Assembly: GCA_965660445.1 (NCBI GenBank)
Contig: CBFIAK010000001.1
Coordinates: forward strand, 608,001-672,000
Length of the DNA: 64,000 nucleotides
Direction of reading: 5' to 3'
Source: Patescibacteria group bacterium
GTDB lineage: Bacteria; Patescibacteriota; Gracilibacteria; UBA4473
Part shown: positions 12,615 through 60,821 of the stretch, one piece after another
How positions within the stretch are numbered: position 1 is the stretch's first letter
Layout of the letters: each line of letters opens with the position of its first letter
Notes under the pieces: model-generated
Database searches by the model: none
What the model was told of the DNA's origin: nothing
What the model saw: only the letters and a program-made list of their open reading frames with translations
Translations under genes and position numbers: made by a program

Positions 12615-12701
12615 GCTCGGGTGGTGGAATCGGTAGACACGAGAGACTTAAAATCTCTTGCTTACACAAGCGTGCGGGTTCAAGTCCCGCCTCGAGCACC
12701 A
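12615..12701 (+). tRNA. tRNA-Leu(TAA)
   Basis: GCTCGGG/CTCGAGC acceptor stem, CT-TAA-AA loop, long variable arm, GGTTCAAGTCC, CCA. Confidence 0.95.
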
Positions 12702-37690: not shown

Positions 37691-37809
37691 AGAAGAAAAA
37701 TAAACCGAATGATACGGTATAATTTTTAGTAAAAAAAACAAGTGTTTTTTGGTTTTGACATTTCATGTAGAAAAAATAGAATTGTGTTCGTTCTTTCTTT
37801 TTTTTTCAC

Positions 37810-37883
37810 AGGCGCGTCGTATAATGGTAGTACAGGGGTCTCCAAAGCCCTTAGCGTGGGTTCGATTCCTGCCGCGCCTGCCA
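37810..37883 (+). tRNA. tRNA-Trp(CCA), integration target
   Basis: AGGCGCG/CGCGCCT acceptor stem, CT-CCA-AA loop, GGTTCGATTCC, CCA. Confidence 0.95.
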
Positions 37884-38030
37884 CACAGTACATTAAGCCA
37901 GTCCCAGATTGGCTTTCCTAGGGAAGCAGGGCACTAATTAATCTTTCAGATTTTGACCCAAATAAGCCTTTATGGGCTTGTTTATCATGTTTTTAAGGGT
38001 TCTAGACCTATTGCCTATGTATGTAGGGCA

Positions 38031-38948
38031 CTAAGAAGGCTTTTGAGAATCTATATACTCCTCAATTGCTTTTTTACTCGATACCCAATTACGACCTTCT
38101 TTGTAGGCATCAATTAAGCCTCTTCGAGCTAAAAGCCCTAAATACTCTGCCGAGTAGGGTGTTTCCGGGGCTATTTCAGAAAGCGGTCTATAACTTTCAG
38201 AATCTGTTTGTATTTCAAAAGCAGAAAGATAAAGATCCAAAGATCTTTCAAGAGCCTGTCCAATTAAGAGTTTTAGTTTTCCATAGTTTCCATTATTTGC
38301 CTGATTAAGAGCATCGTAATACTTTTTTCGGTCATTTCTAAGAATTACGGCTGGTGGATAACCCTCTTGCATAAGCCATAAATTCATAAGTAATCGAGCG
38401 GTTCGACCATTCCCATCAAAAAATGGATGAATCCATACAAAACGATGATGAATAAAGGCTGCTAACTCTAAATCATTTTCCTGTGATTGTTTTTTAACTA
38501 CCTGTTCTACAAAATCTGTCATGAGTTCTGGAATTTTATGTCCAGAAGGAGGGATGAAATTTGCTCCCATAATTCGAACCTGTCCATTTCGATATCTTCC
38601 TGTAAAATCCTCTTCTATTCCATCAAGTACCAATGTATGAAGCTGGAAAATATGGTCTTCTGTAATATTAGATTTTTGTTGAATAAGTAATTCTAAGTGT
38701 GCAATAGCTTTCTCGTGGTTTTTGGCTTCAAAATGTTCACGCAGAGATTTTCCCTTAATCGTTATACCTTCTTCAAGGACTAAACGTGTTTCTTGTAGAG
38801 TAAGGGTGTTTCCTTCAATCGCATTTGAATTATAGGTCCATTCAAGGGAAAGATCGTGTTTCAGCTTTTTAAGGATAGATGCAGAAAGAGGTCGGAGTTT
38901 ATCCAACTTCTTTTTTTTCTTTTGGATTCGTTGGAATAAATTATTCAT
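38031..38948 (-). CDS. Fic-family AMPylase (class II-like) with C-terminal HTH
   Basis: SNAIEGN inhibitory motif; HPFFDGNGRTAR; C-terminal YSAEYLGLLARRGLIDAYKEGRNW. Confidence 0.92.
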   Translation of the reverse strand: MNNLFQRIQKKKKKLDKLRPLSASILKKLKHDLSLEWTYNSNAIEGNTLTLQETRLVLEEGITIKGKSLREHFEAKNHEKAIAHLELLIQQKSNITEDHIFQLHTLVLDGIEEDFTGRYRNGQVRIMGANFIPPSGHKIPELMTDFVEQVVKKQSQENDLELAAFIHHRFVWIHPFFDGNGRTARLLMNLWLMQEGYPPAVILRNDRKKYYDALNQANNGNYGKLKLLIGQALERSLDLYLSAFEIQTDSESYRPLSEIAPETPYSAEYLGLLARRGLIDAYKEGRNWVSSKKAIEEYIDSQKPS

Positions 38949-38982
38949 ATCGGATAGTATTTATTTCAACTCTATCCGATAT
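38947..38982. promoter_or_regulatory. Palindromic operator ATATCGGATAG-N14-CTATCCGATAT (copy 1)
   Basis: Perfect 11-bp arms overlapping the Fic start codon and the -10 (TAGAGT) of a TTGATT-N17 promoter. Confidence 0.8.
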
Positions 38983-39048
38983 TTGATAAAAAATCAAGAA
39001 AACAAATTTCATCAAAAACTTTAGACTTATAGTGATCGATATAGGTCG

Positions 39049-39780
39049 CTATTTTTTGGGGATTATTTTCCCTTTAAAAGGGTGTGAGCAGACTACGGCA
39101 CATCGCTCGTTGATACATTTTGAACCATAAGGGCAATGTGATTGAATTAAATAGTGCATGGGGGTTTCGCAATTTGTGTCGTGAGAACAAGATTCTTGTA
39201 AGATTTCTATTACTTCAAAATCTTGAGAGGCTTCAGATAACTTCATTGTTTCGGAGTCAAGGAGAAGCCAAATACTTTTCCCAACTGATGGCTGTATGGT
39301 AAAGGGTTCTTCAGGTGCTCGGTCCATATAATTAACGATAACTGTTTTCCCTTCTCCAGATTTAGTTGTTTGAGGAGCAATACGATCTCCAAGAAGAATA
39401 GCGTTTGATCCGACATATCCATTCTCAGTATTAAGTGCGGCAACTACATAGAAAAATGTTCCAGATCCCCCTGAATTCTGTGTAAGAAGAAACACTACAT
39501 CTTCTCGACCATCATCATTCAAGTCTTTTTTAACTTCATTCCCAAAATACTGAGTAATAATTTTAGATTTGGATTCCGATACTTCCTCAATCTCAGACGC
39601 CCCATTTTCTAGTTTTATACGTGTACCATCAATAATATATTCAGCATCTTTGTAATCTGGCTGAAGAACTATTTGCTCCAGTTGTTTTACTTCGTGGTTG
39701 TCCTGCTTGCTATTAAATATATATAAAGCCCCTCCAAGTAGAACGATACTTGCGATTATGTATAGGATATTTTTTTGCAT
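39049..39780 (-). CDS. Membrane-anchored hypothetical protein (cargo)
   Basis: N-terminal TM; DLNDDGREDVVFLLTQNSGGSGTFFY...LGDRIAPQ; Cys-rich C-terminus. Confidence 0.75.
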   Translation of the reverse strand: MQKNILYIIASIVLLGGALYIFNSKQDNHEVKQLEQIVLQPDYKDAEYIIDGTRIKLENGASEIEEVSESKSKIITQYFGNEVKKDLNDDGREDVVFLLTQNSGGSGTFFYVVAALNTENGYVGSNAILLGDRIAPQTTKSGEGKTVIVNYMDRAPEEPFTIQPSVGKSIWLLLDSETMKLSEASQDFEVIEILQESCSHDTNCETPMHYLIQSHCPYGSKCINERCAVVCSHPFKGKIIPKK

Positions 39781-40008
39781 TCGTTTATTTTATTGCAATT
39801 GAATAATAGAAAGATTGAGAATATAAGGCAAAATTTCGCATGTATTTATAGATAATTACTTTTTCATCCTTTTGCTAAGGGCAAAGATAATGAAAAATGC
39901 AAATCAAAGTGTTCTATCGATGACCTATCCCCCTTAGTAGAAAAGGGATAATTCAATATCCCTCAATACTCTTTCTGGGATTGCTAAAGATTATTTTAGG
40001 AGGGGTAG

Positions 40009-40027
40009 ATTCCTATCGCCCCTGCCA
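40009..40027 (+). repeat. Degenerate att copy of the tRNA-Trp 3' end
   Basis: ATTCCTATCGCCCCTGCCA versus ATTCCTGCCGCGCCTGCCA (3 mismatches in 19). Confidence 0.8.
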
Positions 40028-40174
40028 CCTAGTGCACTAAGCCAGTCCCAGATTGGCTTTCCTATGGATGCAGGGCTCTAATAATTCCGAGTGAAATTAA
40101 TTTCAATAAGCCTTTACTGGCTTATTTATCTTGTTTTCAAGGGTTCCAGACCTATCGCCTAGGTATGCAGAACG

Positions 40175-41092
40175 CTAATTAAGTTTTTTGGATTCGATGT
40201 ATGCATCAATGGATTTTTGGGTAGAAACCCAATTACGACCTTCTTTATAAGCGTCAATTAAGCCTCGGCGAGCAAGCAAACCTAGATATTCTGCTGAATA
40301 AGGAGTTTGAGGCGCCAGCATAGAAAGTGGTTGATAGATTTCTTTTTCTGTTTGTACATAAAAGACTGAAAGATACATATCGAGTGACCGTTCTATTGCC
40401 TGAGCGATCAAAAGTTCTATTTTTTTGAAATCTCCATTATTAGCTTTGTTTAAAGCGTCATAGTATTTTTTTCTATCATTTTTTAAAATTACAGCGGGAG
40501 GATATCCCGATCGCATCAGCCATAAATTCATCAACAATCGAGCCGTTCTTCCGTTTCCATCAAAAAATGGATGAATCCATACAAAACGATGATGAATGAA
40601 TGTCGCTAATTCTAAGAGATTTTCTTTTGATTTTCTTTTAATTATCTGTTCTACAAAATCTTTCATGAGTTCCGGAACTTTGTGTCCAGAAGGAGGAATA
40701 AAATTTGCTCCTACAATTCGAACTTGTCCATTTCGATATCTCCCCGCAAAATCTTCTTCAATTCCATCCAGTACAAGTTTATGAAGTTGAAGAATATGAT
40801 CTTCGGTAATGTTTGATTTTTGTTGAATAAGTGATTCTAGGTGCGTAATAGCTTTCTCATGATTTTTTGCTTCAAAATGTTCTCGAAGCGACTTCCCTTT
40901 GATTGTTATGCCCTCCTCTAGGACTAAACGAGTTTCTTGAAGAGTGAGAGTATTCCCTTCAATCGCATTGGAATTGTACGTCCATTCAAGCGATAAATCG
41001 TATTTTAATTTTTTAAGAATAGACGCGGGAAGTGGACGAAGTTGATCCAACTTCTCTTTCTTTTTTTGAATTCGTTGTAAAATTTCTTTCAT
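40175..41092 (-). CDS. Fic-family AMPylase with C-terminal HTH, paralog 2
   Basis: Same length (305 aa) and motifs as 38031..38948, with many synonymous differences. Confidence 0.92.
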   Translation of the reverse strand: MKEILQRIQKKKEKLDQLRPLPASILKKLKYDLSLEWTYNSNAIEGNTLTLQETRLVLEEGITIKGKSLREHFEAKNHEKAITHLESLIQQKSNITEDHILQLHKLVLDGIEEDFAGRYRNGQVRIVGANFIPPSGHKVPELMKDFVEQIIKRKSKENLLELATFIHHRFVWIHPFFDGNGRTARLLMNLWLMRSGYPPAVILKNDRKKYYDALNKANNGDFKKIELLIAQAIERSLDMYLSVFYVQTEKEIYQPLSMLAPQTPYSAEYLGLLARRGLIDAYKEGRNWVSTQKSIDAYIESKKLN

Positions 41093-41126
41093 ATCGGATA
41101 GTAACTATTTCTATTCTATCCGATAT
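41091..41126. promoter_or_regulatory. Palindromic operator ATATCGGATAG-N14-CTATCCGATAT (copy 2)
   Basis: Identical arms, different 14-nt spacer; overlaps ATG and -10 TAGAAT. Confidence 0.8.
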
Positions 41127-41489
41127 TTTATAAAAAATCAAGAAAATAAAGGCAAATGAAAGGGTTCTATGGTAACCGATGCCCTATGGGGATAGGGCAC
41201 CTTCATTTTTATGAAACTAAACCACAGAAAAGCCTTTTGGGGATTGTATCGCCATTTTAGAAGGGTTCGATACGACGAACGAAGAAAAAAGAAAGCGCTC
41301 GCAGAGCATTTTCTTTTGGCGAGTAAGGACGTCACGAAAGAACTATCCCGATTTTTCGGGATAAAAATGAATATCATTTTTTGTGATGAAATCACAAAGT
41401 GCTTGAGTATATGAGGAGCGAAGAGCGAACTACAAATTTTGATTTCCATTTATCTACTAAAGCCAACGAGAGTTGGCTGACAGGACGAT

Positions 41490-41508
41490 ATTCCTGCCGC
41501 GCCTGCCA
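41490..41508 (+). repeat. attR: exact 19-bp duplication of the tRNA-Trp 3' end
   Basis: ATTCCTGCCGCGCCTGCCA identical to 37865-37883. Confidence 0.92.
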
Positions 41509-42923: not shown

Positions 42924-43200
42924 CTACTCTATCCCCAACGATCCCAATTTCTCAAACAAAAACTCTATTCTTTTATCTACAGACTCCTCTATTGTTGAAG
43001 CTTTATATTCAGGAATACAAATGACCCCAAATCCTCGGTTGGTATATTCCTCTTCCAAAAAATCTCGAATCTGTAGCGCTCCTTGATAATCAAATACTCT
43101 CCCACTCTCTTTCCGGTCATCAAAGTTTTCCAAAATTTCACACAAAAATACCGCATCATAATGAACTGACCCAGCCATATCTTCGAGTTCCGAAGAAATT
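42924..43200 (-). pseudogene. 3' remnant of an AAA_28/NadR-like ATPase gene
   Basis: ISSELEDMAGSVHYDAVFL...DDRKE...LEEEY...VICIP...VDKRIEFL matches the family C-terminus; no Walker A part present. Confidence 0.5.
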
Positions 43201-43942
43201 TTCTGATTTCTTTTTCTCCAATAATGCCAGATTCATACTGCTTTACTTGTACCTGTAGTTGTATCTGAGCGACATTGTTGACTTCCAAAACTCCCTCGAA
43301 ATCAATCCCTCCATCACCAACTTTTCCTGTTTTTTGAGTTGCGGTAAACCCCAGTGACTGTAGTATATATGCTGCTAATTCTTCGAATTGATAGGCATCA
43401 AGTTCTTTAATTCGAGCTTTGATGATTTTATAAAACTCATCTGTATCAAATTCCTTTGGTTGTTCTGCATTGGGATGTAATTTGGGTTTTAATCCAAGTG
43501 CTTCGTATACTTCTCCTTCTTGTTTTATTTGGAAAAAAGTTAGAGAGCTACGCAGTGAATTTTGTAATGGAATAGAAAATTCATGACGATTGATGGTTTC
43601 TTTAAACCATTCTACGCCCCACCGATAAGGGTATTTGCTCGTATTATCTTCTTTGAAATAAAACTTTCCTTTTATTTTTCCTGCAAGTAATTGATTGTCT
43701 CGATACGGACAAAGAATAATATCGCCTTCTTTGATATCATGAATGAATCGATTAATTTGTCCGACATTTATTCGAACATTCCCGTCTGGATTGTCGGGAA
43801 AGTTTTTTCGATATGCATCTTCGATATTTTCTTTGGTATAAGCAGGAAGGCTTGTCTGAAGCCACCCAATTCCAACATAACCATGTTCACGGAATGTATC
43901 GGTAAATTGACCAAATTCGGCACGGATAACAAAAACACTCAT
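43200..43942 (-). pseudogene. Mrr-like type IV restriction endonuclease, C-terminally truncated (ORF reads on to 42989)
   Basis: FEEL...GF...GDGGID...VQVKQY...EKEIR, after which similarity ends abruptly. Confidence 0.7.
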
Positions 43943-43993
43943 GCAGTTATTGTAGCTTTTTTTCTATTTTTTCAAACAAAGCAACCTATGAAA

Positions 43994-44575
43994 TTAGTAC
44001 TTCCGTGGAAAATGTTCTTTGCCTAATTGCCACAAATACTTATCGATTTGTTTCAAATCAAACTCTTCTAAATTATAAAATTCTCTAAATTTCAGGAGAA
44101 TGTTTTTAAAATCAGGATAAGTCTTTAGGTCGGCACTTTTAAAACTACAAAACTTATCTTTCTTTTTGAAATACATCAGGATTTTCTCCAAATATGAATC
44201 GTAAATCGGATATACAATTGGTTTGTGATGGCTACAGTATTTTGTTGCAAAGGAATAGAAGTTCTTGAAAATCCCTTCTTTTACTTCTACATAGGCAATT
44301 TCGTTTACAATTTCCAGATTCTCTTTATTTAGCTTTTGATCAATATTTAAAGCCACAATGTGCTTTGCGACTGCAAATGGAGAAAAAATATTAGTGCTAT
44401 AAAAATCATTCAAAGCACATACTTTTATGAGGACATCATCAAGTTCTGTATTCGTTGGATACGTCTTTGAAAAAAGTTTCTTCAAACTACTTTCTTGTGA
44501 CACATAACTATCGAGAGAATCCCATTTCTTGAGATAATGTTGAACTTCTTGGGGAGCAGGAAAGGGAATGTTCAT
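43994..44575 (-). CDS. Conserved hypothetical protein, possible HhH-glycosylase-like fold
   Basis: LNDFYST, YSFATKYCSHH, YPIYDS, IDKYLW motifs; in operon with R-M genes. Confidence 0.55.
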   Translation of the reverse strand: MNIPFPAPQEVQHYLKKWDSLDSYVSQESSLKKLFSKTYPTNTELDDVLIKVCALNDFYSTNIFSPFAVAKHIVALNIDQKLNKENLEIVNEIAYVEVKEGIFKNFYSFATKYCSHHKPIVYPIYDSYLEKILMYFKKKDKFCSFKSADLKTYPDFKNILLKFREFYNLEEFDLKQIDKYLWQLGKEHFPRKY

Positions 44576-44577
44576 TT

Positions 44578-46077
44578 TTAATTTATTTGAAGTTCTTCAA
44601 TTCCATCTTTCAATACCATTGTAGCAATACAGTCATCTTCGTTATAAAGCAGTATTCTTTCTAATATTTTGGGATCCTTTTTTTCTATGTAGTCATTGAA
44701 CCATTGGATTGATAAAGCTCCTGATGGGCTTTCATCACGCCACCGAAATCCTAGATATTGGGCGATTGCCTTTAATCCATAACTTCCAAGTGGCCAGTCA
44801 GTATCCCTTAATACTATCTGATAAAGGTCTATTACATTTGGATTTTGGAAAAATGCTTCTAATGCATCTTCATTTATTACATTAGGGTATTGTTTTTGCA
44901 TTCGACGGTATGTTGTTTTTTCATGGTGTGAATAGTAATAAACAGCGAAATCATCTTGAGGAAGAGATTTAATATAGTCCCAAAATTTTTTCCATGCTTC
45001 CTCTTCAGCCTTTTCTGAAATTTCTGTAGCAGTAAAATCTAAAAACCTTTCTCCTTGCGGTGATCGTTCATAAACCCCGTGTAAGTAGACAAATTCTTGA
45101 GTTGGGTCGTCTTCAATATCAAAAAATAATTCGTAAGTCACTTCTGGGAATACTATTGGGACATGGGCTATCGGTTTTTGAGTTTCGAGCATAATTCCGG
45201 CTCGATTAATAAGCTTTGAAAGAGTTTTTTCTCCCACGCCCTTGAGGAAGGATTTATCTTTTTTCTTTTGTTCAATGGTGCTTTCAATATCTAGTGTTAG
45301 AAGTTCTTCTACTTTATCAATCCCTAGTTCTTCGTTCATTTTATCTCGAACACTTCGTCCAAGATAAAAAATCTTTGTAAGATCCTGTTCGTCTTCACAC
45401 CATTTTTTACAACTATTATACCAAGGACAAAGTTTACAAATTCCCGCCATAGCAGGCTTATTTTGATCTTTATTTTGTAGAAGCAATGAAACATGGTGTT
45501 TAATCTGTTCATAGTATTCCCAAAATGTTTGCTGATTTCTCTTTCCAATAGGAGCGTCAAATTCATATAAAACTTCATTTCCATGTCCATCAAGTATTTT
45601 CCCAAATCTATAACTTCCAAAACCAAGTTTATGAAGAATTTCTGAGTATAAACAAAGTTGGACTGCGTAATGTTTTTTGGGTTTGCCTTCTTCCCCATTT
45701 TCGTCATCTACGCCTTCAAGTCCCATTCCCGATTTAATATCAATAGGAATATATCCACCATCTGGCATGCGTCTTAATAAATCAGGAATCCCAAGAAGAT
45801 TATCTGACCGAATAACCCCTTGATAAATCAAATCAACTCCGTTGTTTATGGCATCCATTGTTTTCTGAAAACGCTCATCTATTGATCCTTCCCCCATATC
45901 CTCAAATTCTCCAATTTTCTGAATCATCTTTTCCTCATGTTGAACTCCTTTTTTCCAAAGAAGTTCCACAAAAGGATTGGCGTCCTGTATCTTTTCCACT
46001 TGGTCCCCATGCTTATCTCTCCACACTTTATGTGGACACTGAATATAATCGTAGAGCTTTGAAGCTGTTATATACAT
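44578..46077 (-). CDS. TM0106-family RecB-like nuclease with RNase H-like C-terminal domain
   Basis: GIPDLL...PIDIK, QLCLY, FFDIE, SYGLKAIA, YNEDDC. Confidence 0.88.
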   Translation of the reverse strand: MYITASKLYDYIQCPHKVWRDKHGDQVEKIQDANPFVELLWKKGVQHEEKMIQKIGEFEDMGEGSIDERFQKTMDAINNGVDLIYQGVIRSDNLLGIPDLLRRMPDGGYIPIDIKSGMGLEGVDDENGEEGKPKKHYAVQLCLYSEILHKLGFGSYRFGKILDGHGNEVLYEFDAPIGKRNQQTFWEYYEQIKHHVSLLLQNKDQNKPAMAGICKLCPWYNSCKKWCEDEQDLTKIFYLGRSVRDKMNEELGIDKVEELLTLDIESTIEQKKKDKSFLKGVGEKTLSKLINRAGIMLETQKPIAHVPIVFPEVTYELFFDIEDDPTQEFVYLHGVYERSPQGERFLDFTATEISEKAEEEAWKKFWDYIKSLPQDDFAVYYYSHHEKTTYRRMQKQYPNVINEDALEAFFQNPNVIDLYQIVLRDTDWPLGSYGLKAIAQYLGFRWRDESPSGALSIQWFNDYIEKKDPKILERILLYNEDDCIATMVLKDGIEELQIN

Positions 46078-46080
46078 AAA

Positions 46081-47724
46081 TTATTTTTTTCTATTTAATC
46101 GTCTATCTCGCAATTTCTTCCAAATACTTCTGAGGATAAAGACTTCTTCTTTTTTAAAATTATGCTGTTTGATGAGAAGTTCGTTATCAACTATGTCTAA
46201 AATTTCATCTATCTTTTTCTCTCTCATTAATTGATCGATCTTATCGAAATCTAACTGTATTTCTTTTAGTATCGGAATTCTAATTTCTCCGATCTCAGTT
46301 GGTTCAAAAGTCATTACTCCTCCTCCATAACTACGTCCTGTTACTTCAGAAAAAGCAAAGGAGAGAGAATTTAAAAATGAAATAGCTGCCAATTTCTTAT
46401 TGATCCCGTCTTTGAATTTTACTCGATGGACTGTGTCTGTTGGCATTGCATCAGTTCCATTGAGAATCAATTTGGGGTAATCATTTATCTGTCTTAATGC
46501 AAAAGCATCCGGTGCCCATAAAGACGGTGTTATATACCAATTCTTACGTATTCTACATTTATAGCCAGTATGATAATTTTGATCTTCCCCAAAATTTATA
46601 TACTTTTGGCAAACTTGAGGAAGTTTAGATTTTTCAATATTTTCTGGCATAAAAAGATAAACATCATCTAGAGATTTCGAATTTTTTTGAAAATCAAGCT
46701 TGGAAAAGTTAATTCCTCGTAATTGGTTTGAGCGACTGACTGCTGGTATTACATATGAAGAAAGCTTCCACTCTTTTACTTGATTTTCATTCATCATGAA
46801 AAACTTATTTTGTCCTGTAACAATTCCCACATTTGTGATCATTATTTCAGAACACGAACAGACTCTTTCATCATTTTTAAATCTTTTTAATAGATTTATT
46901 TCTTCTTCTGTTAAAAAGTATTTAGTCCACTTTTCTGAACTATGATCAATCGGTTTCACATTTGATCCATTTATTTTCTCAAAATTTAGAGATTTAAGAT
47001 CATCTAGATTTTCACATTCTATCGTTCGTATTCCCTTTCCATGAGTTACTTTTTTTTCACACAGCAAAAGAACTACTTCTTGTTGAATATCAGAAAATAC
47101 TAATTTTTTAAAGGTTATAATATTAATTCGGTCAAAATATTTCGATAAAAATATCCTTGTTTCTGCTGCGTATTTTACTTGAAATAATTCGGCAGGAATA
47201 ACCATTGCAAGTTTCCCTTTTTCCGTTAGAAGAGATGCTGAAATTACTAAAAATGGAACCCAAATATTAGTTAGTTTATTGGGAGAAAGCCCCAAATCAT
47301 TCATCATTTTTATTGCAATCGATCGGTGATCTTCTGGGAAATTCTGGTATCTAATGAACGGAGGATTTCCAAGAACAACATCATATTTTTCTTTTTTATT
47401 ATTTATGTAATGAAAGAAATCGCTATTAGTAATTATGTCAGGATCAATACCTAATTTCTTTGTGCGATTTTGAGCTCTTAATGCTTCCTCTGGCATTAAT
47501 TCAACTCCTCTTAGTGTTTTACTTATTTGATCATTTTTTAAGCCTAGTTTTTTGAGCCTCAAAATAGAAGATTCTATAAAATTCCCATCACCGCAACTAG
47601 GTTCTAGTATTTTTTTTGTATTTTTTTCGATTCCCCAATTACACAAAAATTCAGTTATTTTTTCAGGAGTATAATATCCTCCTCTTAGTTTTTGTGTCTG
47701 AGTATTCTTTGTTTTATTTTTCAT
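46081..47724 (-). CDS. N6-adenine DNA methyltransferase, M.Eco57I-like companion
   Basis: QKLRGGYYTP, LEPSCGDG, GNPPFIRYQ, GRSYGGGV. Confidence 0.9.
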   Translation of the reverse strand: MKNKTKNTQTQKLRGGYYTPEKITEFLCNWGIEKNTKKILEPSCGDGNFIESSILRLKKLGLKNDQISKTLRGVELMPEEALRAQNRTKKLGIDPDIITNSDFFHYINNKKEKYDVVLGNPPFIRYQNFPEDHRSIAIKMMNDLGLSPNKLTNIWVPFLVISASLLTEKGKLAMVIPAELFQVKYAAETRIFLSKYFDRINIITFKKLVFSDIQQEVVLLLCEKKVTHGKGIRTIECENLDDLKSLNFEKINGSNVKPIDHSSEKWTKYFLTEEEINLLKRFKNDERVCSCSEIMITNVGIVTGQNKFFMMNENQVKEWKLSSYVIPAVSRSNQLRGINFSKLDFQKNSKSLDDVYLFMPENIEKSKLPQVCQKYINFGEDQNYHTGYKCRIRKNWYITPSLWAPDAFALRQINDYPKLILNGTDAMPTDTVHRVKFKDGINKKLAAISFLNSLSFAFSEVTGRSYGGGVMTFEPTEIGEIRIPILKEIQLDFDKIDQLMREKKIDEILDIVDNELLIKQHNFKKEEVFILRSIWKKLRDRRLNRKK

Positions 47725-47728
47725 GAAT

Positions 47729-50700
47729 TTATGTATTATCAGTTAATTCCGAAAGGAATGTATTATTACTTGTTGCTAATTTAAAATCGTCATTACTGAT
47801 GTTATAAATTTTATTAATTTTTTTTATTAATTTTTCCATCAATACATCTATTTTTCGTTCAAATACTGATTTTTCAGTGTCAAAAGATTTATTAAATTTA
47901 TCCTTTGTTTTAATTAGTTCTTTTACTAGTTTTATTATTTCTTCATAGTCGGCAATTTCCTCAGCATTTTGAAAATCAATCAACCGAATAGGAAGATTCT
48001 CAATAAATTGTTTTCCATGAGAATAGTAAGCACCTCTGAATTCACTGGCACCCGCTTTTACCATGTTTTCAAAGACTGGATGAGAGAGGATTCCAAGTAA
48101 GTAAAAAATAGAGTAATCACTATTTTGTAATAAAGAATAATAGGGTCCATTTCCCCCGCCAGTAAACTGTAGATCGTTATTATCAAAAATATAAGCAGGC
48201 TCAGTTGATAAAACTGACCATATAAGCTTTGGTGCGTTGTGAAATCGCGTCAAACTTTGAGAACGACCGAATTGATACCATTTAGGATCACGACCATTTA
48301 GGCTTCTAACTTCTAGAACAGCTTTATGCTTATTTAAATACTCCCAACACAAAGGATATTCAGTTTGAAGAAATTTCTCAGAAAATAACTCAGCCCGATC
48401 TGTTATCTTATATGGGAAAATCATTTGAGCATTTCCGCTAATGGTATCAAATAAATCAAAAGATAGATCATATATGCAGGGGCGACATATATCCTTCTCT
48501 ATTTCATAACGAATACCATCTTTAGAAAAAATAAATTTCTCATTCGTTTCATTTTCGGGAGTGAATATATAAATAGGATCTTTACTGGTTTGAAGTCCCA
48601 CCGCAATTTCTGCCACCTCTTTTAATTTTTTTATATTTTGAGAATAAATATTATTAAATATGGCTTCTACTTCTGGTTGCAAGAAGATCCATGGATCGCT
48701 GTTGTATTTTTCGGTCTTATAGGTTCCCCATGTGTTGTCTGATAAAATTTCCGGAGTAATTTTATCTATTTTTTTGAATTGGAAATTATTGGTATGTTCT
48801 TTTTGAATAACAATAATTGCAGTGTAAGTGGATCTTTCAGGGAAAATCTGTGTTATTCCAAAATGAACAAGCTTTGACAGCTGACTATTTTCTGTAATAT
48901 ATTTTCTTAAGCTTTTCCCTCCCTTGTTTATAAAGAATTTATGTGGAACGATATAACCAAGAAATCCCTTGGCATTTAATAGTAAGATTGCTCTTTGTAT
49001 GAATACGTAATACTTATCAATACTTTCTTTTGTTGCAACACTAAATCCGGAGTCTTTGGATTGATAGTATTTAATTTCTTCAGGAGTGTATTTAACAAGA
49101 TTCTGAATTCGAACATATGGAGGGTTTCCGACGATAGCGTCAAATCCTTTGGTACTCTTTAAAAATGGAAATTCTTTCTCCCAATCAAATGGTTTTGTTC
49201 TTAACAACAAAGTATCGCTTAAAGACGACCCCATGAAATCATAAAATTTTGAATCAACTAGCGAATTACCACATTTTATATTTTCTTTTAGATCTGGGAG
49301 TACTCTTTCTGAGAATTGATCGATAAAATTATCGACAGTTGCTGCTGTTTCATCCTCCAATAATTTCAAGAGAAGACTAAATTTAGTTACTTCTGCTGCA
49401 TAAGGGTTTATATCTACTCCATGAATGATGTTTTCAAGAATTTTCCTTTTGGAATTTACGGTAAGAGCAAAACTGTTGTCGCTTTTTTTAATTATTAATT
49501 TTTGATCATCAACGCCTTCTTCTATGAATTTCTCAATAATGGTTCGAAGCAAATAATCATAGGATGAAATTAAAAAAGTTCCTGATCCACAACATATGTC
49601 AGAAATTTTTAGTTTTAATATTTCATCAGAAGTTTTTTCACTAATTATTGGGTTCAAAGTTTCTTGTACAATTTTTTCCACTATAATTTTTGGAGTTGGA
49701 ACAACTCCATTAGATGCGGAAACTTCAGGCTCTTCCAATATTGAAAGCTGCCTTTTTTCATCAAGAACGATTTTGCTTCCTAGGAATTTTTCATAAATTT
49801 GACTAAGTATGCTGGTATCAACAACAGAAAAGTCGTAAGGACTTAGGGGATAGTAAAGCTCACTGAATACTTCAATTAAAACCTCAGAATCAATTTCTAT
49901 CTTGAGTGATAATCTATCTTCAATAAAATCAAATAACCCCGAATTATATTTTTTATCTGACTGAATAAATATCTCTTTTAATGCTTTATAATCTTTGATA
50001 TTTTTTAGTGTTTCAAATTTCTCGATTGATCGATCTTCACAAATTCTTAAAAATATAATTTTATTAAGAAGTCGTTGAATTAAGAAATTTATACTTTCAT
50101 TATCAATTTCTTTATTCAGCTTAACTGCTGACTCTGCCAAGGTTTTTCTCCATTTTTCAATTTGTTCTAGGAAATGATTATCAAACGTTTCTCCCATCCT
50201 TTCATAGACGGAGTAAAGATCATCTATTCGCCCAGAAGCAGCTGAATGATAAGAAATTATGTCCTGTATTTCTTCAAACGCCTTTTCATATTCGGTATAT
50301 TTGAATTTTTTAATTCTTGCTACGTGTTCTCCATCTGAAGAATTAGGTTTAAATCTGCAATCATAAATAACCAGGTCTTCAAAATTTGTAAGAATTGATA
50401 TTCCAAGATTTGCATTCCATCCATATCTTCTTGTTTGAAAAGCAGATTTTGCAGATTTAAGGATATTAACACTGGGTTTTTTTGCTTCAACAAAAAGTTT
50501 TCTGGTTCCGTTAACTCGGAGTGTGTAGTCGGGATTTTTTTTGGAAATAGAATCTTCGACCTCAATATATTCCTCTTGAATTACATCTCTCAAAAATTGA
50601 GTTTGTCTTTTTTTATTATCAACATCCCATCCAAGCGATTTTAAAAGGGGGTCAATAAAATCATTTCGCAGTTGAGTTTCATTATATGAAGCCTTTAGAT

Positions 50701-50752
50701 AATTAGACCTGTGTTGTTTGTATTTGTTAACCAGTGTTGAAATATCTGTCAT
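47729..50752 (-). CDS. Type IIG restriction-modification enzyme (Eco57I/BpmI-like)
   Basis: NETQLR, PDY...VEAKK nuclease; DICCGSG and GNPPY methylase motifs; C-terminal target-recognition region. Confidence 0.9.
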   Translation of the reverse strand: MTDISTLVNKYKQHRSNYLKASYNETQLRNDFIDPLLKSLGWDVDNKKRQTQFLRDVIQEEYIEVEDSISKKNPDYTLRVNGTRKLFVEAKKPSVNILKSAKSAFQTRRYGWNANLGISILTNFEDLVIYDCRFKPNSSDGEHVARIKKFKYTEYEKAFEEIQDIISYHSAASGRIDDLYSVYERMGETFDNHFLEQIEKWRKTLAESAVKLNKEIDNESINFLIQRLLNKIIFLRICEDRSIEKFETLKNIKDYKALKEIFIQSDKKYNSGLFDFIEDRLSLKIEIDSEVLIEVFSELYYPLSPYDFSVVDTSILSQIYEKFLGSKIVLDEKRQLSILEEPEVSASNGVVPTPKIIVEKIVQETLNPIISEKTSDEILKLKISDICCGSGTFLISSYDYLLRTIIEKFIEEGVDDQKLIIKKSDNSFALTVNSKRKILENIIHGVDINPYAAEVTKFSLLLKLLEDETAATVDNFIDQFSERVLPDLKENIKCGNSLVDSKFYDFMGSSLSDTLLLRTKPFDWEKEFPFLKSTKGFDAIVGNPPYVRIQNLVKYTPEEIKYYQSKDSGFSVATKESIDKYYVFIQRAILLLNAKGFLGYIVPHKFFINKGGKSLRKYITENSQLSKLVHFGITQIFPERSTYTAIIVIQKEHTNNFQFKKIDKITPEILSDNTWGTYKTEKYNSDPWIFLQPEVEAIFNNIYSQNIKKLKEVAEIAVGLQTSKDPIYIFTPENETNEKFIFSKDGIRYEIEKDICRPCIYDLSFDLFDTISGNAQMIFPYKITDRAELFSEKFLQTEYPLCWEYLNKHKAVLEVRSLNGRDPKWYQFGRSQSLTRFHNAPKLIWSVLSTEPAYIFDNNDLQFTGGGNGPYYSLLQNSDYSIFYLLGILSHPVFENMVKAGASEFRGAYYSHGKQFIENLPIRLIDFQNAEEIADYEEIIKLVKELIKTKDKFNKSFDTEKSVFERKIDVLMEKLIKKINKIYNISNDDFKLATSNNTFLSELTDNT

Positions 50753-50757
50753 GAAAT

Positions 50758-50979
50758 TTAAGATATTAGTTGATCAAGAGTAATTTCTAATCCTTCAGCA
50801 ATTTTAGTTGCCGTTGGAAGCGTTGGACTTTTAATTACATCGCTTTCAATCTTAGCGAGTGTGGTATATGGAATATCAGCTTTTCGTGCCAAAGCCTCTT
50901 GAGTAAGCTTCCTTTTCGCACGCCAAGCTTTTATTTTTTGCCCGATACTTCGCTCTTCCTTTTGTTTTTTTTCTTCCAT
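50758..50979 (-). CDS. XRE-family HTH regulator (possible R-M controller)
   Basis: LTQEALARKADIPYTTLAKIE; first gene of the R-M operon. Confidence 0.88.
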   Translation of the reverse strand: MEEKKQKEERSIGQKIKAWRAKRKLTQEALARKADIPYTTLAKIESDVIKSPTLPTATKIAEGLEITLDQLIS

Positions 50980-51082: not shown

Positions 51083-52366
51083 CTAATCGGTTTTTAGCTT
51101 CACGGTTCCTCGCTCAAGAAGTAATTGTCCTTTGACACATCGAAGTACTTGTTCTTTCTCCTTTGGTGTTCCGTTTTTGAGAAGAAAGCATATGTATTCA
51201 TGAACGCTCATCAATTGTGCTTTGTCTCCATACCGAACCATTTCCATCTGATTAATTTTTTCGACTTCCTTTTGTATTTCTTTGCGAATATAGAATGAAT
51301 TTTCGTCTGTTTGAGTAACGAGGCTAGATACTTCTTCAATGAGCTTCTGTTCAGGGATGTATTTCTCTTTACAGATCCCGTGTCCGTAATACCGATTGCA
51401 CTTGTAGTAGCTGTATTCTTTCCCATGACGGTTGATATGGGTTTCTCCACACACGCCTGATCCACAGACCCCGCATTTAAAAATTTTGTTGAAGTAAAAC
51501 TGTTTCCGTCCCCATTTTCCTTTTGGACTTACAATCAATTTCGTTTGAGTGAGGTCGTACATTTTCTTGGTAATCAAGGGTTTGTAATCTCCGTCATACC
51601 AGTTTCCAGAACCTCGGGGATATTCGAATTTTCCGTAGTAGAAAGTATCGCCTAAGATTTTGTAAATCATGCTGAGTGATACGATTTTGTCATTTCTCGA
51701 TTTAAGTCCTTCTCTTTGCATGTGATCCCAAACCTGCCGTCCACTCATTCCCTCGTGAGCCACGAGCATGAAAATCTGTTTTATGTACGGAGCACGTTCT
51801 GGATCTACTTCTATCGTGCTGGGATCAGACATTCGCTCGCCTCGCTTAAGAATGTATCCAATCGGGGGAGATCCAGGGCGAACGCCTGTTTCACATTTCG
51901 CTCGCATACCTCTTTTTACATTCTTGGATCGGTTGTCGTTTTCTAGCTTCGCCTGAGAACAGAGAATCATGAGAAGAAATTTCTCGTCAGGGGTGTTGGT
52001 AAATTTCTGACCGCTCGTCTGGATCTTGACCAACTTTTCTTGATCCATGAGATCGACAAGTGTCCCTAGATCTCCTGCATTTCTGCTCAACCTGTCAGGA
52101 GCCCATGTCAGCACACAATTGAAGCGTTGCTCGCTGATTCCCAAGATCACTTTGTTGTATCCGATTCGTTGCCCCGAGGACTTAGCCGATTTGCTCTCTC
52201 GAATCGTTTCCACGATCTCAATCCCTTCTTTTTCTGCGATTTGTGTCATCTCTTTGATTTGAGAATCAATACTCATGGCTTGCCGTTCATCCGCTTCGCT
52301 CGACTTACGGGCGTATAAGCAGTAGCGAAGCGGTTGTTCCGATATCGATATTGGGTTTTCCATCAC
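51083..52366 (-). CDS. Large serine recombinase 1
   Basis: YARKSS, SIDSQ, DRLSRN, recombinase domain, CGVCG...YYKC zinc ribbon. Confidence 0.92.
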   Translation of the reverse strand: MMENPISISEQPLRYCLYARKSSEADERQAMSIDSQIKEMTQIAEKEGIEIVETIRESKSAKSSGQRIGYNKVILGISEQRFNCVLTWAPDRLSRNAGDLGTLVDLMDQEKLVKIQTSGQKFTNTPDEKFLLMILCSQAKLENDNRSKNVKRGMRAKCETGVRPGSPPIGYILKRGERMSDPSTIEVDPERAPYIKQIFMLVAHEGMSGRQVWDHMQREGLKSRNDKIVSLSMIYKILGDTFYYGKFEYPRGSGNWYDGDYKPLITKKMYDLTQTKLIVSPKGKWGRKQFYFNKIFKCGVCGSGVCGETHINRHGKEYSYYKCNRYYGHGICKEKYIPEQKLIEEVSSLVTQTDENSFYIRKEIQKEVEKINQMEMVRYGDKAQLMSVHEYICFLLKNGTPKEKEQVLRCVKGQLLLERGTVKLKTD

Positions 52367-58296: not shown

Positions 58297-58486
58297 TTAT
58301 CAAGTCATTAAGAGAGGCGACATTATTTTTTTCAAGATATGTCCCCAAGTGCATATCTGACCGAACTCCGAAATCTTTTTCATATTGTTTCTCGATCGTT
58401 CCCATGTGAGTATCGTCTCGTTTATCACGAAGTTGTCCATCTTGGTTTCTTGAGCGGTTTCCTCGCATTCCTGGTGCATCTGCCAT
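58286..58486 (-). CDS. Small hypothetical protein (66 aa)
   Basis: Overlaps the TIR start; preceded by the TAACCC motif; RSRNQDGQLRDKRDDT...FGVRSDM. Confidence 0.7.
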   Translation of the reverse strand: MADAPGMRGNRSRNQDGQLRDKRDDTHMGTIEKQYEKDFGVRSDMHLGTYLEKNNVASLNDLINGK

Positions 58487-58626: not shown

Positions 58627-59270
58627 ATGCACGAAACACAACGAAAAATATTAGCACTTCTTGAGTCAAAGGGACAGCTTTTCCTTAAATATGCCCAAAT
58701 AGCTCGGGATATTAAAGAAGACAGTCTTCAAAATGTTAAATATCATCTTTTGCAACTCGAGAAACGTGGCTATATCGTTATTGATAAAGTCAAAAAAGTA
58801 GTAAAAAAAGCGTCAGATGTAGCGGAAAAATCTTTAGGATTTTCTAATATTCCTTTTTATGGCGATGCCAATTGCGGATCTCCCTTATCTTACGCCGAAG
58901 ACATGCAACACGGGGTTCTTAAGGTTTCATCTTCGCTAGTACCAAGTTCCGAAAATATGATTGCGCGGTACGAGCTGTTGGAGATTCAATGAATATATCG
59001 CGTATTAAGGGATCTTCAATTGAAGATGGAGATTATGTTATTGTTGATACTCAAAAAAAAGCACCAGAAGCAAAAGATTATATACTTTCTGTTATTGATG
59101 ATGGGGCGAATATTAAACGAATTTATTTCGATGAAACAAATCATTATGTCGTCCTTAGATCAGAATCCAATGATCCAAATTTTCGAGATATAATCATACA
59201 TGAAGACGACAAGTATTCGGTTGTGGGAACGGTAGAATGTGTAATAAAGAAGCCTCAAATCGAAGATTGA
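58627..59270 (+). pseudogene. LexA/S24-family repressor split by a 2-bp insertion
   Basis: N-terminal wHTH and YGDANCG; removing 2 nt in GCGCGG (58963-58968) restores IAVRAVGDSMN...EDGD...IKR. Confidence 0.8.
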
Positions 59271-60517
59271 TTCTTTGATTCATAAATCACTTGCTTGTCT
59301 TTTATCAAAAGCCTCCCATTCAATGCTTGTAGAGATTCAGATTTCTTTTGAAGACTTCCGTATACCAATTCATCCTGTATGAATTGATACGGCTTAAGGG
59401 GTGGTTTTATGAAAAAATTACACCTTCTCATGTCATCTTTTTGGCGTTGATTGAGTTCGCTAATGTCTAAATCCGTTATTTGTTCCGCAATTTTTTCTAT
59501 TTGTGCCAGAAGATTTTTTCCTCGAATGCTTAATTGTTTGCAGTTGCTATTGTATTTATTGCACGAGTAGTAAAGGTAGAGTCGATTGTACCTATTCCTG
59601 TAAATCTCACCAGAAATACCAGATCCGCACTCGCCACATTTAAAAATTCTATTGAATTTGAAAGGAATCTCTCCCCATTTTCTTCGGGGTTCTCGGGGAC
59701 CTCGTTTTGCGATGTTTGTTTGGACTTTATCATAAAGTTCCTTGGTAATGAGCGGTTCATGAATACCTTTGTACCAATTCCCACTTTTTTTGGGGTATTC
59801 AAATTCTCCGTAGTAAAAAGTATCTGCCAACATCTTTTGAAGCCTACTTTTGGCTAACTTCTTTCCATGCTTCGAAAATTTCCCCAATCTGTCCATATCT
59901 TTCCAAATGTGGTAGATACTTTTGTTCTCTTCTCCCACTAACCGAAATATCTCTTTCACAATGGGAGCTTTTTCTTCATCAATTACAGCTCTATTTGGCT
60001 CGTGTATATCTTCTCCAGGTACAAGTTTGTATCCTAATGGCGTTGCATAGGGTCTTCGTCCTTGTTCACAAGCTGCCCTCATTCCACGTTGCACGTTTTT
60101 ACCACGATTTTCATTCTCAAGTTTTGCCTGACTTCCCAAAAGCATGAGCAAAAACTTCTCATTTGGATTATTTCCAAGAAATGTTCGGTCATGCGTTCGA
60201 ACAACCTGTAATTTCTCTTGATCCATTAAATCGACCAACATCCCTAAATCTCCTGCATTTCTGCTGAGTCGGTCAACCGCCCATGTTAAAATCGCTTCAT
60301 ATTCTCCATCCATCAGTCCTGCCATGAGCTGAGTGAATCCCGGGCGAGAAAAGGAAGTTTTTGCAGATTTACACTCTTCTATGATTTTTACGACATCAAG
60401 ATCTTCTGCCTCTTGAATTTTTCTCATCTCTCGGAACTGAGATTCAATCGACATAGCTTGTTTTTCATCTTGTTCAGAGGACTTTCTGGCATAAATACAA
60501 TAGCGAATATTAGACAT
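59255..60517 (-). CDS. Large serine recombinase 2
   Basis: YARKSS, SIESQ, DRLSRNAGDLG, CGECG...YYSC; paralog of 51083..52366. Confidence 0.92.
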   Translation of the reverse strand: MSNIRYCIYARKSSEQDEKQAMSIESQFREMRKIQEAEDLDVVKIIEECKSAKTSFSRPGFTQLMAGLMDGEYEAILTWAVDRLSRNAGDLGMLVDLMDQEKLQVVRTHDRTFLGNNPNEKFLLMLLGSQAKLENENRGKNVQRGMRAACEQGRRPYATPLGYKLVPGEDIHEPNRAVIDEEKAPIVKEIFRLVGEENKSIYHIWKDMDRLGKFSKHGKKLAKSRLQKMLADTFYYGEFEYPKKSGNWYKGIHEPLITKELYDKVQTNIAKRGPREPRRKWGEIPFKFNRIFKCGECGSGISGEIYRNRYNRLYLYYSCNKYNSNCKQLSIRGKNLLAQIEKIAEQITDLDISELNQRQKDDMRRCNFFIKPPLKPYQFIQDELVYGSLQKKSESLQALNGRLLIKDKQVIYESKNQSSI

Positions 60518-60785
60518 ATGAAAGGGGTTACAATGGAAACATTATAATCCCTTGTGTAAATACATCTTGAATAAAAAAATTGTTCAAAGGAAATATTGAG
60601 ACACCCCTTTTTTATAGTGTCTCATTTGTCTCATTTTCAAGGTCAGGTATAATAAAATATGCAAGGCATAAGACACCAGACCGACAGCCACTGCCAAAAC
60701 AAAAACCTTGGCATACCAACAAAGATTTGGTGTGGCGGGCTTTTTGCTATTTGCTCGGGAGGAATTGAACCTCAGTTTGTTATTT

Positions 60786-60821
60786 ATATCGGATAGAATA
60801 ATAAATAATGCTATCCGATAT
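60786..60821. promoter_or_regulatory. Palindromic operator ATATCGGATAG-N14-CTATCCGATAT (copy 3, orphan)
   Basis: Arms and spacer length identical to the two Fic operators; no Fic gene follows. Confidence 0.75.

Follow-up and report, generated by a model that had tools for sequence, protein, structure and literature searches.

This study concerns a tandem array at positions 37884-41508 of a 64,000-nt stretch of contig CBFIAK010000001.1, from a Patescibacteria group bacterium. This stretch is called the window below, and all positions are counted within it. The array starts at the 3' end of an intact tRNA-Trp gene and consists of two units, each closed by a copy of the tRNA end and each carrying a gene for a Fic protein between conserved non-coding ends. 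Cassettes of the same kind were found behind tRNA-Trp in two further genomes, a Peribacteria metagenome-assembled genome (MAG; locus L001) and a Gracilibacteria MAG (locus L002). We think that these units are somewhat more probably mobile than not, as non-autonomous, site-specific mini-cassettes moved in trans at the tRNA-Trp 3' end.

The array behind tRNA-Trp

The features of the array are as follows (att, attachment-site copy of the tRNA end).

37755-37782: promoter-like TTGACA-16-TAGAAT at tRNA-Trp
37810-37883, plus strand: intact tRNA-Trp(cca) gene (ARAGORN; Rfam tRNA, 57 bits)
37865-37883, plus strand: attL, the last 19 bases of tRNA-Trp, ATTCCTGCCGCGCCTGCCA
37884-38030, plus strand: non-coding left end of unit 1, with hairpin AAGCCAGTC-CCA-GATTGGCTT at 37895-37914
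37960-37983, plus strand: terminator-like hairpin in the unit 1 left end
38031-38948, minus strand: Fic1, 305 aa, predicted class II Fic core and putative C-terminal winged helix at residues ~253-302 (Pfam Fic, E 9e-23)
38947-38982: palindrome ATATCGGATAG-N14-CTATCCGATAT over the Fic1 start codon, its ATCGGATAG-N14-CTATCCGAT part at 38949-38980
39029-39052, plus strand: terminator-like hairpin ATAGTGATCGATATAGGTCGCTAT followed by a T run
39049-39780, minus strand: further cargo of unit 1, a 243-aa protein whose N-terminus has a hydrophobic segment and whose C-terminus is rich in Cys
39899-39935, plus strand: right block of unit 1, GCAAATCAAAGTGTTCTAT...CGATGACCTAT
40009-40027, plus strand: middle att, ATTCCTATCGCCCCTGCCA, differing from the tRNA end at 3 bases
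40028-40174, plus strand: left end of unit 2, with hairpin AAGCCAGTC-CCA-GATTGGCTT at 40039-40058
40105-40126, plus strand: terminator-like hairpin in the unit 2 left end
40175-41092, minus strand: Fic2, 305 aa, architecture as Fic1 (Pfam Fic, E 2e-23)
41091-41126: palindrome ATATCGGATAG-N14-CTATCCGATAT over the Fic2 start, its ATCGGATAG-N14-CTATCCGAT part at 41093-41124
41141-41113, minus strand: promoter-like TTGATT-17-TAGAAT of Fic2, with its -10 element inside the palindrome
41152-41199, plus strand: right block of unit 2, GCAAATGAAAGGGTTCTATGGTAACCGATGCCCTATGGGGATAGGGCA
41200-41489: spacer of unit 2, apparently non-coding (no Pfam match in its frames)
41460-41478: hairpin AAGCCAAC-GAGA-GTTGGCT in the unit 2 spacer, 11 nt before the last att
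41490-41508, plus strand: last att copy, an exact 19-mer that bounds the array on the right

At up to 3 mismatches the tRNA 19-mer has three matches in the window and none in 100 shuffled sequences. This confirms the repeats at 40009 and 41490, and the units of ~2.1 and ~1.5 kb, that a preliminary description of the locus had reported. Start-to-start spacing of the att copies is 2144 bp for unit 1 and 1481 bp for unit 2. Aligned to each other, the units are colinear from att through the Fic gene and 54 bases past the Fic start. Both have the same order, namely a non-coding left end, a minus-strand 305-aa Fic gene, an 11-N14-11 palindrome over the start codon and a right block; the hairpin, the palindrome and the right block all lie where the common layout had been described to have them. 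No left-end homology was detected after the last att copy (41508), and the only further att-like site downstream in the window, at 58467, has 4 mismatches and is within chance by rough estimate. This 19-mer (ATTCCTGGTGCATCTGCCA, 58467-58485) is in the tRNA orientation and overlaps the start of a minus-strand open reading frame (ORF) of 66 aa.

From att to the Fic stop codon, the left ends of the two units are identical at 117 of 143 aligned bases (82%), and the hairpin AAGCCAGTC-CCA-GATTGGCTT has the same sequence in both. The description of a conserved left end of ~150 bp with this hairpin holds for the window units; in the L001 cassette the hairpin is not kept (5 of 9 pairs break), and the conserved core is a 60-nt block, 37961-38020, which is 93% identical to L001 over 60 nt. 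A structured RNA in the left end was considered and rejected, as RNAalifold, run on both strands of three sequences, found 1 and 3 compensatory pairs with a covariation term near zero; Rfam found only the tRNA in this region of the window. For left-end structure, nothing beyond the terminator-like hairpins can be claimed.

The right blocks of units 1 and 2 form a local alignment of 40 columns with one 6-base gap, and 17 of the 19 bases quoted earlier for this block (GCAAATxAAAGxGTTCTAT, at 39899 and 41152) agree. The right block of unit 2 is 95% identical over 37 nt to that of the second L001 cassette and 90% over 42 nt to that of the first; in L002 the block abuts the att copy without a spacer. 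Hairpins of the AAGCCA-N-TGGCT family give five strand-matches at three places in the window, where 0.11 are expected, and all of them stand beside att copies at a distance of ~11 nt: on the right side for attL and for the middle att, on the left side for the last one.

Unit 1 has additional content. The hairpin at 39029-39052 corresponds to the left end found behind tRNA-Trp in L001 and L002 (93% identical to the L002 left end over 28 nt). Possibly it began a cassette that used to stand alone, in which case unit 1 would be a fusion of two. The 243-aa cargo protein next to it has no match in Pfam, NCBIfam or PADLOC, and its nearest Atlas clusters are hypothetical proteins, mostly of Minisyncoccota (score 0.95).

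A recombinase was sought inside the units, and the four ORFs there give only Fic domains or nothing in Pfam. Not one of the 14 stop-to-stop frames of at least 30 aa in the two spacers has a meaningful Pfam match that would indicate a recombinase remnant (best E 0.17). These searches uphold the earlier statement that neither unit encodes an integrase; a Phage_integrase domain is absent from the 60 window ORFs scanned.

Cassettes in other genomes and history of the units

A scan of genome contigs with Fic1 matched 599 stretches, 308 of which encode relatives, and the best 80 loci were analysed. Fic is 72% identical to Fic1 in L001 and 80% in L002; the other 78 loci, almost all from Bacteroidota, encode proteins of 300-320 aa with 54-60% identity. 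A tRNA gene adjoins Fic only in L001 and L002 among these 80, and nine others have some tRNA more than 1 kb away. In both of these genomes Fic is convergent with tRNA-Trp, as in the window, and a second att copy stands directly behind the cassette (L001, 4834-4852, 1 mismatch; L002, 9906-9924, 3 mismatches to its own tRNA). In L002 the array is a single cassette of 1158 bp with Fic as cargo. L001 has two, of 1348 bp (Fic) and 978 bp, the latter with a HicA-like gene and a ribbon-helix-helix (RHH)/NikA-like gene as a pair. This second cassette reads from the window-type left end through the HicA-like gene, the RHH gene, a palindrome and the right block to a third att copy (att3, 3856-3874), which has 5 mismatches. 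Left ends and cargo are combined in three ways: type A ends go with Fic in the window and with a toxin-antitoxin (TA) pair in L001, and type B ends, a hairpin followed by a T run, go with Fic in both L001 and L002.

No recombinase domain is encoded by the 17 ORFs of L001 (the whole 14.6-kb contig) or by the 16 ORFs of L002 (10 kb each side). We compared the DNA flanking the three arrays over 10 kb each side where the sequence allows, and over less in L001, by tblastx and by blastp on all frames of at least 80 aa; no shared protein was found at E ≤ 1e-5. The genome search suggested in the preliminary description has thereby yielded cassettes beside tRNA-Trp without a recombinase nearby. A single integrase-bearing island with constant cassette number is the opposite of what L001 and L002 present, and the flanks are unrelated. 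The cassette frame has no match in 50,697 phage records; among 72,556 plasmid records there are 8 matches, all confined to the Fic coding sequence. Between the L001 array and a DUF2196 gene with a PIF1-like helicase gene, several short G+C-rich repeats (GGAATGACAA, CCGGGAT-type) are present at 2300-2950, and these may be a REP-like family.

Fic1 and Fic2 share 83% of their amino acids and 77.8% of their bases. The preliminary description had noted many synonymous differences, and these are borne out: 66% of synonymous sites differ (pS 0.66), dS is ~1.6 and dN/dS 0.07. It follows from these values that both genes are under purifying selection and that the copies are old; at this divergence a recent duplication is excluded. 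Since the left ends are 82% identical while synonymous sites are saturated, the non-coding ends appear to be under constraint as well. The left end of unit 1 is as similar to that of L001 cassette 2 as to that of unit 2 (82% each), and the 54 bases upstream of the Fic start codons are 91% identical between the units. The tRNA-Trp genes of the three genomes agree at 57-60 of 74 bases (60 of 74 between the window and L001). Judged from these identities, the cassette frame is conserved above neutral DNA, and its best block above its own tRNA gene.

In the protein tree Fic1 pairs with the relative P0002, and Fic2 groups with P0006, P0007 and P0009 (supports 92/58 and 97/80). Relatives elsewhere are 88% identical to Fic1 and 86% to Fic2 (P0006, from another assembly), both above the identity between the two copies, and the nearest Fic relatives come from Peribacteria and Gracilibacteria MAGs. 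For the DeaD helicase of the window, a set of 5.8 billion proteins holds no relative above 67%; the best named ones, from 'Candidatus Gracilibacteria' MAGs, have 59-65%. Fic relatives at 88% and 86% against DeaD relatives at no more than 67% are signs of horizontal spread of the cassettes. P0006 and P0131, a DeaD relative of 63% identity, carry the same source tag and are each listed from a contig of 11,169 bp; if this is one contig, a helicase only 63% identical and a Fic 86% identical stand in one genome. The distal att of L002 matches the L001 tRNA end at 24 of 24 bases and its own tRNA over 17 bases only, which fits an att copy brought in from a host with another acceptor stem.

Fic proteins, the palindrome and the neighbourhood

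The best sequence match of the Fic1 core in PDB is human FICD (E 4e-40), and the AlphaFold2 (AF2) model of Fic1 (mean confidence, pLDDT, 87) matches FICD in Foldseek at 3e-13 with a TM score of ~0.73. Fic1 has the catalytic motif H174-PFFDGNGRTAR-185, in agreement with the class pattern HxFx(D/E)GNGRxxR; the motif positions are mostly invariant in 44 sequences, and H174 and F177 are kept in at least 90% of them. The inhibitory motif S41-NAI-E45-G46, of the pattern (S/T)xxxE(G/N), lies N-terminally in the same chain, and E45 and G46 are invariant in the 44 sequences. Because the catalytic motif is full and the inhibitory motif is in cis, Fic is to be placed in class II, as a self-inhibited enzyme. 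Neither unit has a partner ORF beside Fic that could be a separate antitoxin, which sets these genes apart from class I Fic/Doc TA pairs. By its motifs, Fic is a class II self-inhibited AMP-transferase with no separate antitoxin. It had been suggested that the cassettes are maintained by a Fic toxin; there is no evidence for this, as Fic is self-inhibited and partnerless and a sister cassette carries other cargo. PADLOC matches of Fic1 to PDC-S04 (4e-40) and SoFic (1e-35) indicate family-level likeness only, and with 43 bits against a cut-off of 550 Fic1 falls far short of the NCBIfam SoFic equivalog. Fic may serve as a defence or toxin-type gene.

The last ~50 residues of Fic are modelled as strand-helix-helix-hairpin-helix (domain model pLDDT 88). 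A helix-turn-helix (HTH) related to excisionase or MerR-type domains had been proposed here. The topology is that of Xis/MerR winged helices, and the best superpositions include lambda Xis, Pukovnik Xis, RdfS, CbpM, TraN and the MerR-type NmlR (TM score 0.54-0.63, root-mean-square deviation 1.8-2.5 Å). HTH_17 matches with E 0.001 and 19.7 bits, short of its cut-off of 27 bits, and Foldseek with this domain returned nothing at E ≤ 0.001. A Xis/MerR-like winged helix at the Fic C-terminus is plausible from the model, if weakly supported.

The ATCGGATAG-N14-CTATCCGAT copies at the two Fic starts compare with 0 expected by chance. Half-sites ATCGG...CCGAT, 8-30 bases apart, occur no more than 150 nt upstream of the Fic family gene in 46 of the 80 loci, with just 40 matches in the remaining ~1.36 Mb. 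Most of the Bacteroidota loci (L003-L080) keep a spaced ATCGGAT...ATCCGAT ~85-110 nt upstream of the aligned start. Since 46 of the 80 loci have the palindrome, in other phyla without linkage to a tRNA, it belongs to the Fic family and not to the cassette. The earlier description of a palindromic operator as a cassette part was right about its presence at both Fic starts, and it is the attribution to the cassette that changes. A role as recombinase site or cassette end was also considered and is ruled out as the principal explanation, because the half-sites precede Fic genes of Bacteroidota that have no tRNA beside them. The palindrome is probably the operator of the Fic-HTH protein. By analogy with CccR of Yersinia pseudotuberculosis, a dimer that combines a FIC domain, an in-cis inhibitory helix S-x3-E-G and a C-terminal HTH and is reported to repress its own promoter (PMC9755527), Fic most likely uses the 11-N14-11 palindrome to repress its own promoter. 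The loci L003-L080 would then probably be a large unstudied set of CccR-like autorepressors.

A third ATCGGATAG-N14-CTATCCGAT copy lies at 60788-60819 with no adjoining Fic gene. Twelve bases from it, on the minus strand at 60752-60771, is a tRNA-like 3' fragment, GGTTCAATTCCTCCCGAGCA, which is unique in the window. The palindrome-then-tRNA-end order at 60752-60819 is that of the cassettes, and the site is ~270 bp upstream of the serine recombinase gene at 59255-60517. The site may be what is left of a cassette that targeted another tRNA, or else an additional target of the Fic-HTH protein. The tRNA-Leu gene at 12615-12701 was rejected as the source of the fragment, its acceptor strand being similar and not the same.

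Just beyond the array follow a 200-aa gene without known function and a gene for a Tag glycosylase, and then a defence cluster at 42989-50979, where G+C drops to 0.28-0.36. The cluster encodes an Mrr-like PDC-S02 protein (6e-77), a TM0106-type RecB-like nuclease, a type II methylase, a 1007-aa type IIG restriction-methylase and a small HTH_3 protein. The segment 51083-60517 resembles a prophage or an island and has a higher G+C, 0.39-0.45 between 51 and 57 kb. Its genes include those for a terminase-like protein (weak match), for two DNA methylases, of which one is fused to ParB-N, and for a SLATT/DUF4231 protein with two transmembrane segments adjoining a ThsB-type TIR protein; a LexA-like repressor is split into the overlapping ORFs 58627-58992 and 58989-59270. 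Genetic code 25 (TGA = Gly) was tried for the window and is not needed, as the Fic ORFs and their neighbours do not change and long ORFs are intact under table 11. On sequence grounds the host is taken as a bacterium of the candidate phyla radiation (CPR), from the Gracilibacteria/Peregrinibacteria group, with the standard code.

Mobility, rival explanations and known systems

Our reading of the array as trans-mobilised cassettes is built on its anatomy, on the same tRNA gene as the site in three genomes with unrelated flanks, on the variable number and cargo of the units and on their constrained ends. Because the cassettes recur at tRNA-Trp in two unrelated neighbourhoods, they look like hitch-hiking elements that need an outside recombinase. 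The cassette frame would consist of the ~150-bp left end, minus-strand cargo with its own promoter, the right block, a spacer and a 19-26-base copy of the T-arm/acceptor 3' part of the tRNA. The left end would act as a plus-strand terminator right behind the tRNA, so the tRNA gene would keep a terminator after an insertion. In an excised circle, right block, spacer, att and left end would come together as an attP of ~300 bp, and the attP reconstituted for unit 2 would have one AAGCCA-N-TGGCT-type hairpin on each side of the core. From the mismatch patterns of the distal copies, crossover may take place at or beyond the last tRNA bases. Insertion and excision would be carried out by a site-specific recombinase encoded elsewhere and acting in trans, which may be of the tyrosine or the serine type, and binding of Fic to the operator is likewise a prediction. 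It is possible, and we put it forward tentatively, that a dedicated family of such recombinase-less cassettes, made of a ~300-bp attP and one toxin or defence gene, lives in CPR bacteria of the Gracilibacteria/Peregrinibacteria group. A recombinase from another part of the genome, or from a visiting element, would capture these cassettes at tRNA-Trp, stack them there and exchange them, which would make them a tRNA-anchored counterpart of integrons.

Several points weigh against mobility in trans. No recombinase acting on the cassettes was identified in the window units, L001 or L002, and the arrangement was found in three genomes only, the window and two of the best 80 loci. Two copies show decay, the middle att with 3 mismatches and L001 att3 with 5, and some cassettes may accordingly be fossils fixed in place. 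Terminator and promoter roles could by themselves account for the constraint on the ends, the distal att of L002 could be a fossil of an older acceptor stem, and patchy sampling or different rates could produce the identity gap between DeaD and Fic. In the approximately unbiased (AU) test, a tree with Fic1 and Fic2 as sisters is not rejected (p 0.188).

These points bear on the rival explanations in different ways. Integrase-bearing islands or prophages at tRNA-Trp could have decayed to a useful Fic or TA gene between att scars, immobile and inherited vertically. The decayed att copies and the lack of a recombinase near the arrays in the window, L001 and L002 agree with this, as does the published view that cis-mobilizable elements (CIMEs) are decay products by definition (PMC5704250) and that partial tRNAs are commonly scattered through islands (bioRxiv 10.1101/2020.12.28.424599). 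Independent decay, however, would not leave one frame (left 93%, right 90-95% identity) round different cargo. No integrase remnant is present in the 14 spacer frames, the flanks are unrelated in all three genomes and the ends are kept far better than synonymous sites, and we regard fossil islets as an unlikely explanation. Local tandem duplication of one Fic unit with its att, followed by long divergence and no second insertion, would account for the order, spacing and gene length common to both units. Given the AU test, the two copies may stem from an old duplication inside the array, and the earlier proposal of separate acquisitions is favoured by the protein tree. The free tree, though, places Fic1 and Fic2 with different relatives; relatives elsewhere are closer to each of them than the other copy is, the unit 1 left end resembles L001 cassette 2 no less than unit 2, and the cassettes of L001 and L002 with their swapped cargo are left unexplained. 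Duplication is in our opinion very unlikely.

A further alternative keeps the cassettes as they are and changes the enzyme to a large serine recombinase, with the genes at 51083-52366 and 59255-60517 as trans partners. These encode two proteins of 420-427 aa with Resolvase, Recombinase and Zn_ribbon domains, 46% identical to each other, and lie 9.6 and 17.7 kb beyond the array. The third Fic palindrome with its tRNA-like fragment, close upstream of the second gene, speaks for such a pairing. Tandem islands at ssrA in Dehalococcoides, with 20-bp repeats, are described as using a CcrB-like serine recombinase, and 15 of them lack the module (PMC3146451). Against the serine enzymes, none is found in the L001 contig or within 10 kb each side in L002, and no tRNA-Trp att bounds the recombinase region, the site at 58467 being the sole candidate. 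Where tRNA 3' ends are repeated, the enzyme is usually a tyrosine integrase. We consider a serine enzyme quite improbable, and return to trans-mobilised cassettes, with their recombinase encoded outside the arrays, as the reading that we prefer.

CPR bacteria have genomes of ~1 Mb and few recognised routes of gene exchange. If our preferred reading is true, cassettes of 1-2 kb that consist of cargo and a recombination site show how CPR bacteria exchange genes for defence and toxins with hardly any burden on the genome, and the conserved left and right blocks are a handle by which the recombinase can be found through co-occurrence. If the cassettes are only fossils, the locus is an ordinary tRNA-linked islet of little importance. 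The Fic-HTH family with its spaced palindrome is widespread, with 54-60% identity between CPR and Bacteroidota, and CccR, the single experimentally studied example, now extends to a large testable family.

CccR is alike in having FIC and HTH in one chain and a palindrome at its own promoter (PMC9755527). The AF2 models likewise put a FIC domain together with an HTH at the C-terminus in one chain here, with HTH_17 below its threshold; the palindrome is present and repression is predicted. CccR differs in its length of 380 aa, in being described as type VI-secreted and in its HTH and operator, a widely spaced 10-N26-10 palindrome (PMC9755527), whereas the palindrome here is 11-N14-11 and no secretion system is nearby. 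PDB entry 7xux, likely that of CccR, matches Fic only at 1.3e-20. Class II enzymes of the FICD/HYPE type (PDB 6i7g, 4u04) share the catalytic core, the motif and the inhibitory glutamate with Fic; they have TPR and membrane-anchor parts and no DNA-binding domain.

Among small cargo units, SCCmec and pseudo-SCC elements (SCC, staphylococcal cassette chromosome), integron cassettes and CALINs (clusters of attC sites lacking integron-integrases) have conserved sites, gather at one location and take their recombinase from elsewhere. Integron cassettes are defined by an attC site at the cassette end and an IntI/attI platform, which is missing in CALINs, and TA cassettes are common in large integron arrays. 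The units described here are bounded by copies of the tRNA-Trp 3' end instead of attC or orfX repeats and bring along a promoter and a terminator of their own. Neither IntI nor Ccr is encoded next to them, and with no Phage_integrase among the 60 window ORFs they are not integron cassettes or CALINs. Neither are they tRNA islands with their own tyrosine integrase, as no integrase gene lies inside an att-bounded unit in the window, L001 or L002. Tycheposons of Prochlorococcus resemble them in targeting tRNAs, piling up in tandem, leaving partial tRNAs and carrying defence or niche cargo, and differ in that 937 of 937 counted carry a recombinase, many have replication genes and the size is 10-20 kb, as far as the published account describes them (bioRxiv 10.1101/2020.12.28.424599).

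Close counterparts are the CIMEs of streptococci, described as having tRNA-derived attL and attR, no integration or transfer genes, and a tandem placement at one site (PMC5704250). These features recur in our arrays: the 3' end of the target is present in three copies in the window, three in L001 and two in L002, and the unit ORFs and the 14 spacer frames are free of integration and transfer genes. CIMEs are, in that account, decay products from integrative and conjugative elements (ICEs) or integrative and mobilizable elements (IMEs), usually of several kb, and are moved in cis by a neighbouring ICE (PMC5704250). The cassettes here measure 1.0-2.1 kb, mostly hold a single gene and keep the same non-coding frame in different genomes and with different cargo. 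Among the ORFs examined beside the three arrays, no ICE, IME or remnant was seen. The ssrA islands of Dehalococcoides also stand in tandem behind a tRNA-like gene with repeats of its 3' end, and their number varies by strain; 16 of them carry the serine recombinase module, and those without it are proposed to be CIMEs (PMC3146451). They are large, with reductive dehalogenase cargo (PMC3146451), and a module-bearing member was not seen in our arrays. The claim of the preliminary description that no described element has this design was too strong, with CIMEs (PMC5704250) and module-less ssrA islands (PMC3146451) in print. Literature searches on integrase-less or non-autonomous tRNA-linked elements and on mobile elements of CPR turned up no report of such cassettes at tRNA-Trp or in CPR, which is weak evidence of absence. 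The present cassettes differ from the known elements by their size, with one gene in 1.0-2.1 kb, by a non-coding frame kept from genome to genome and from cargo to cargo, by having no autonomous relative so far, and by their host group.

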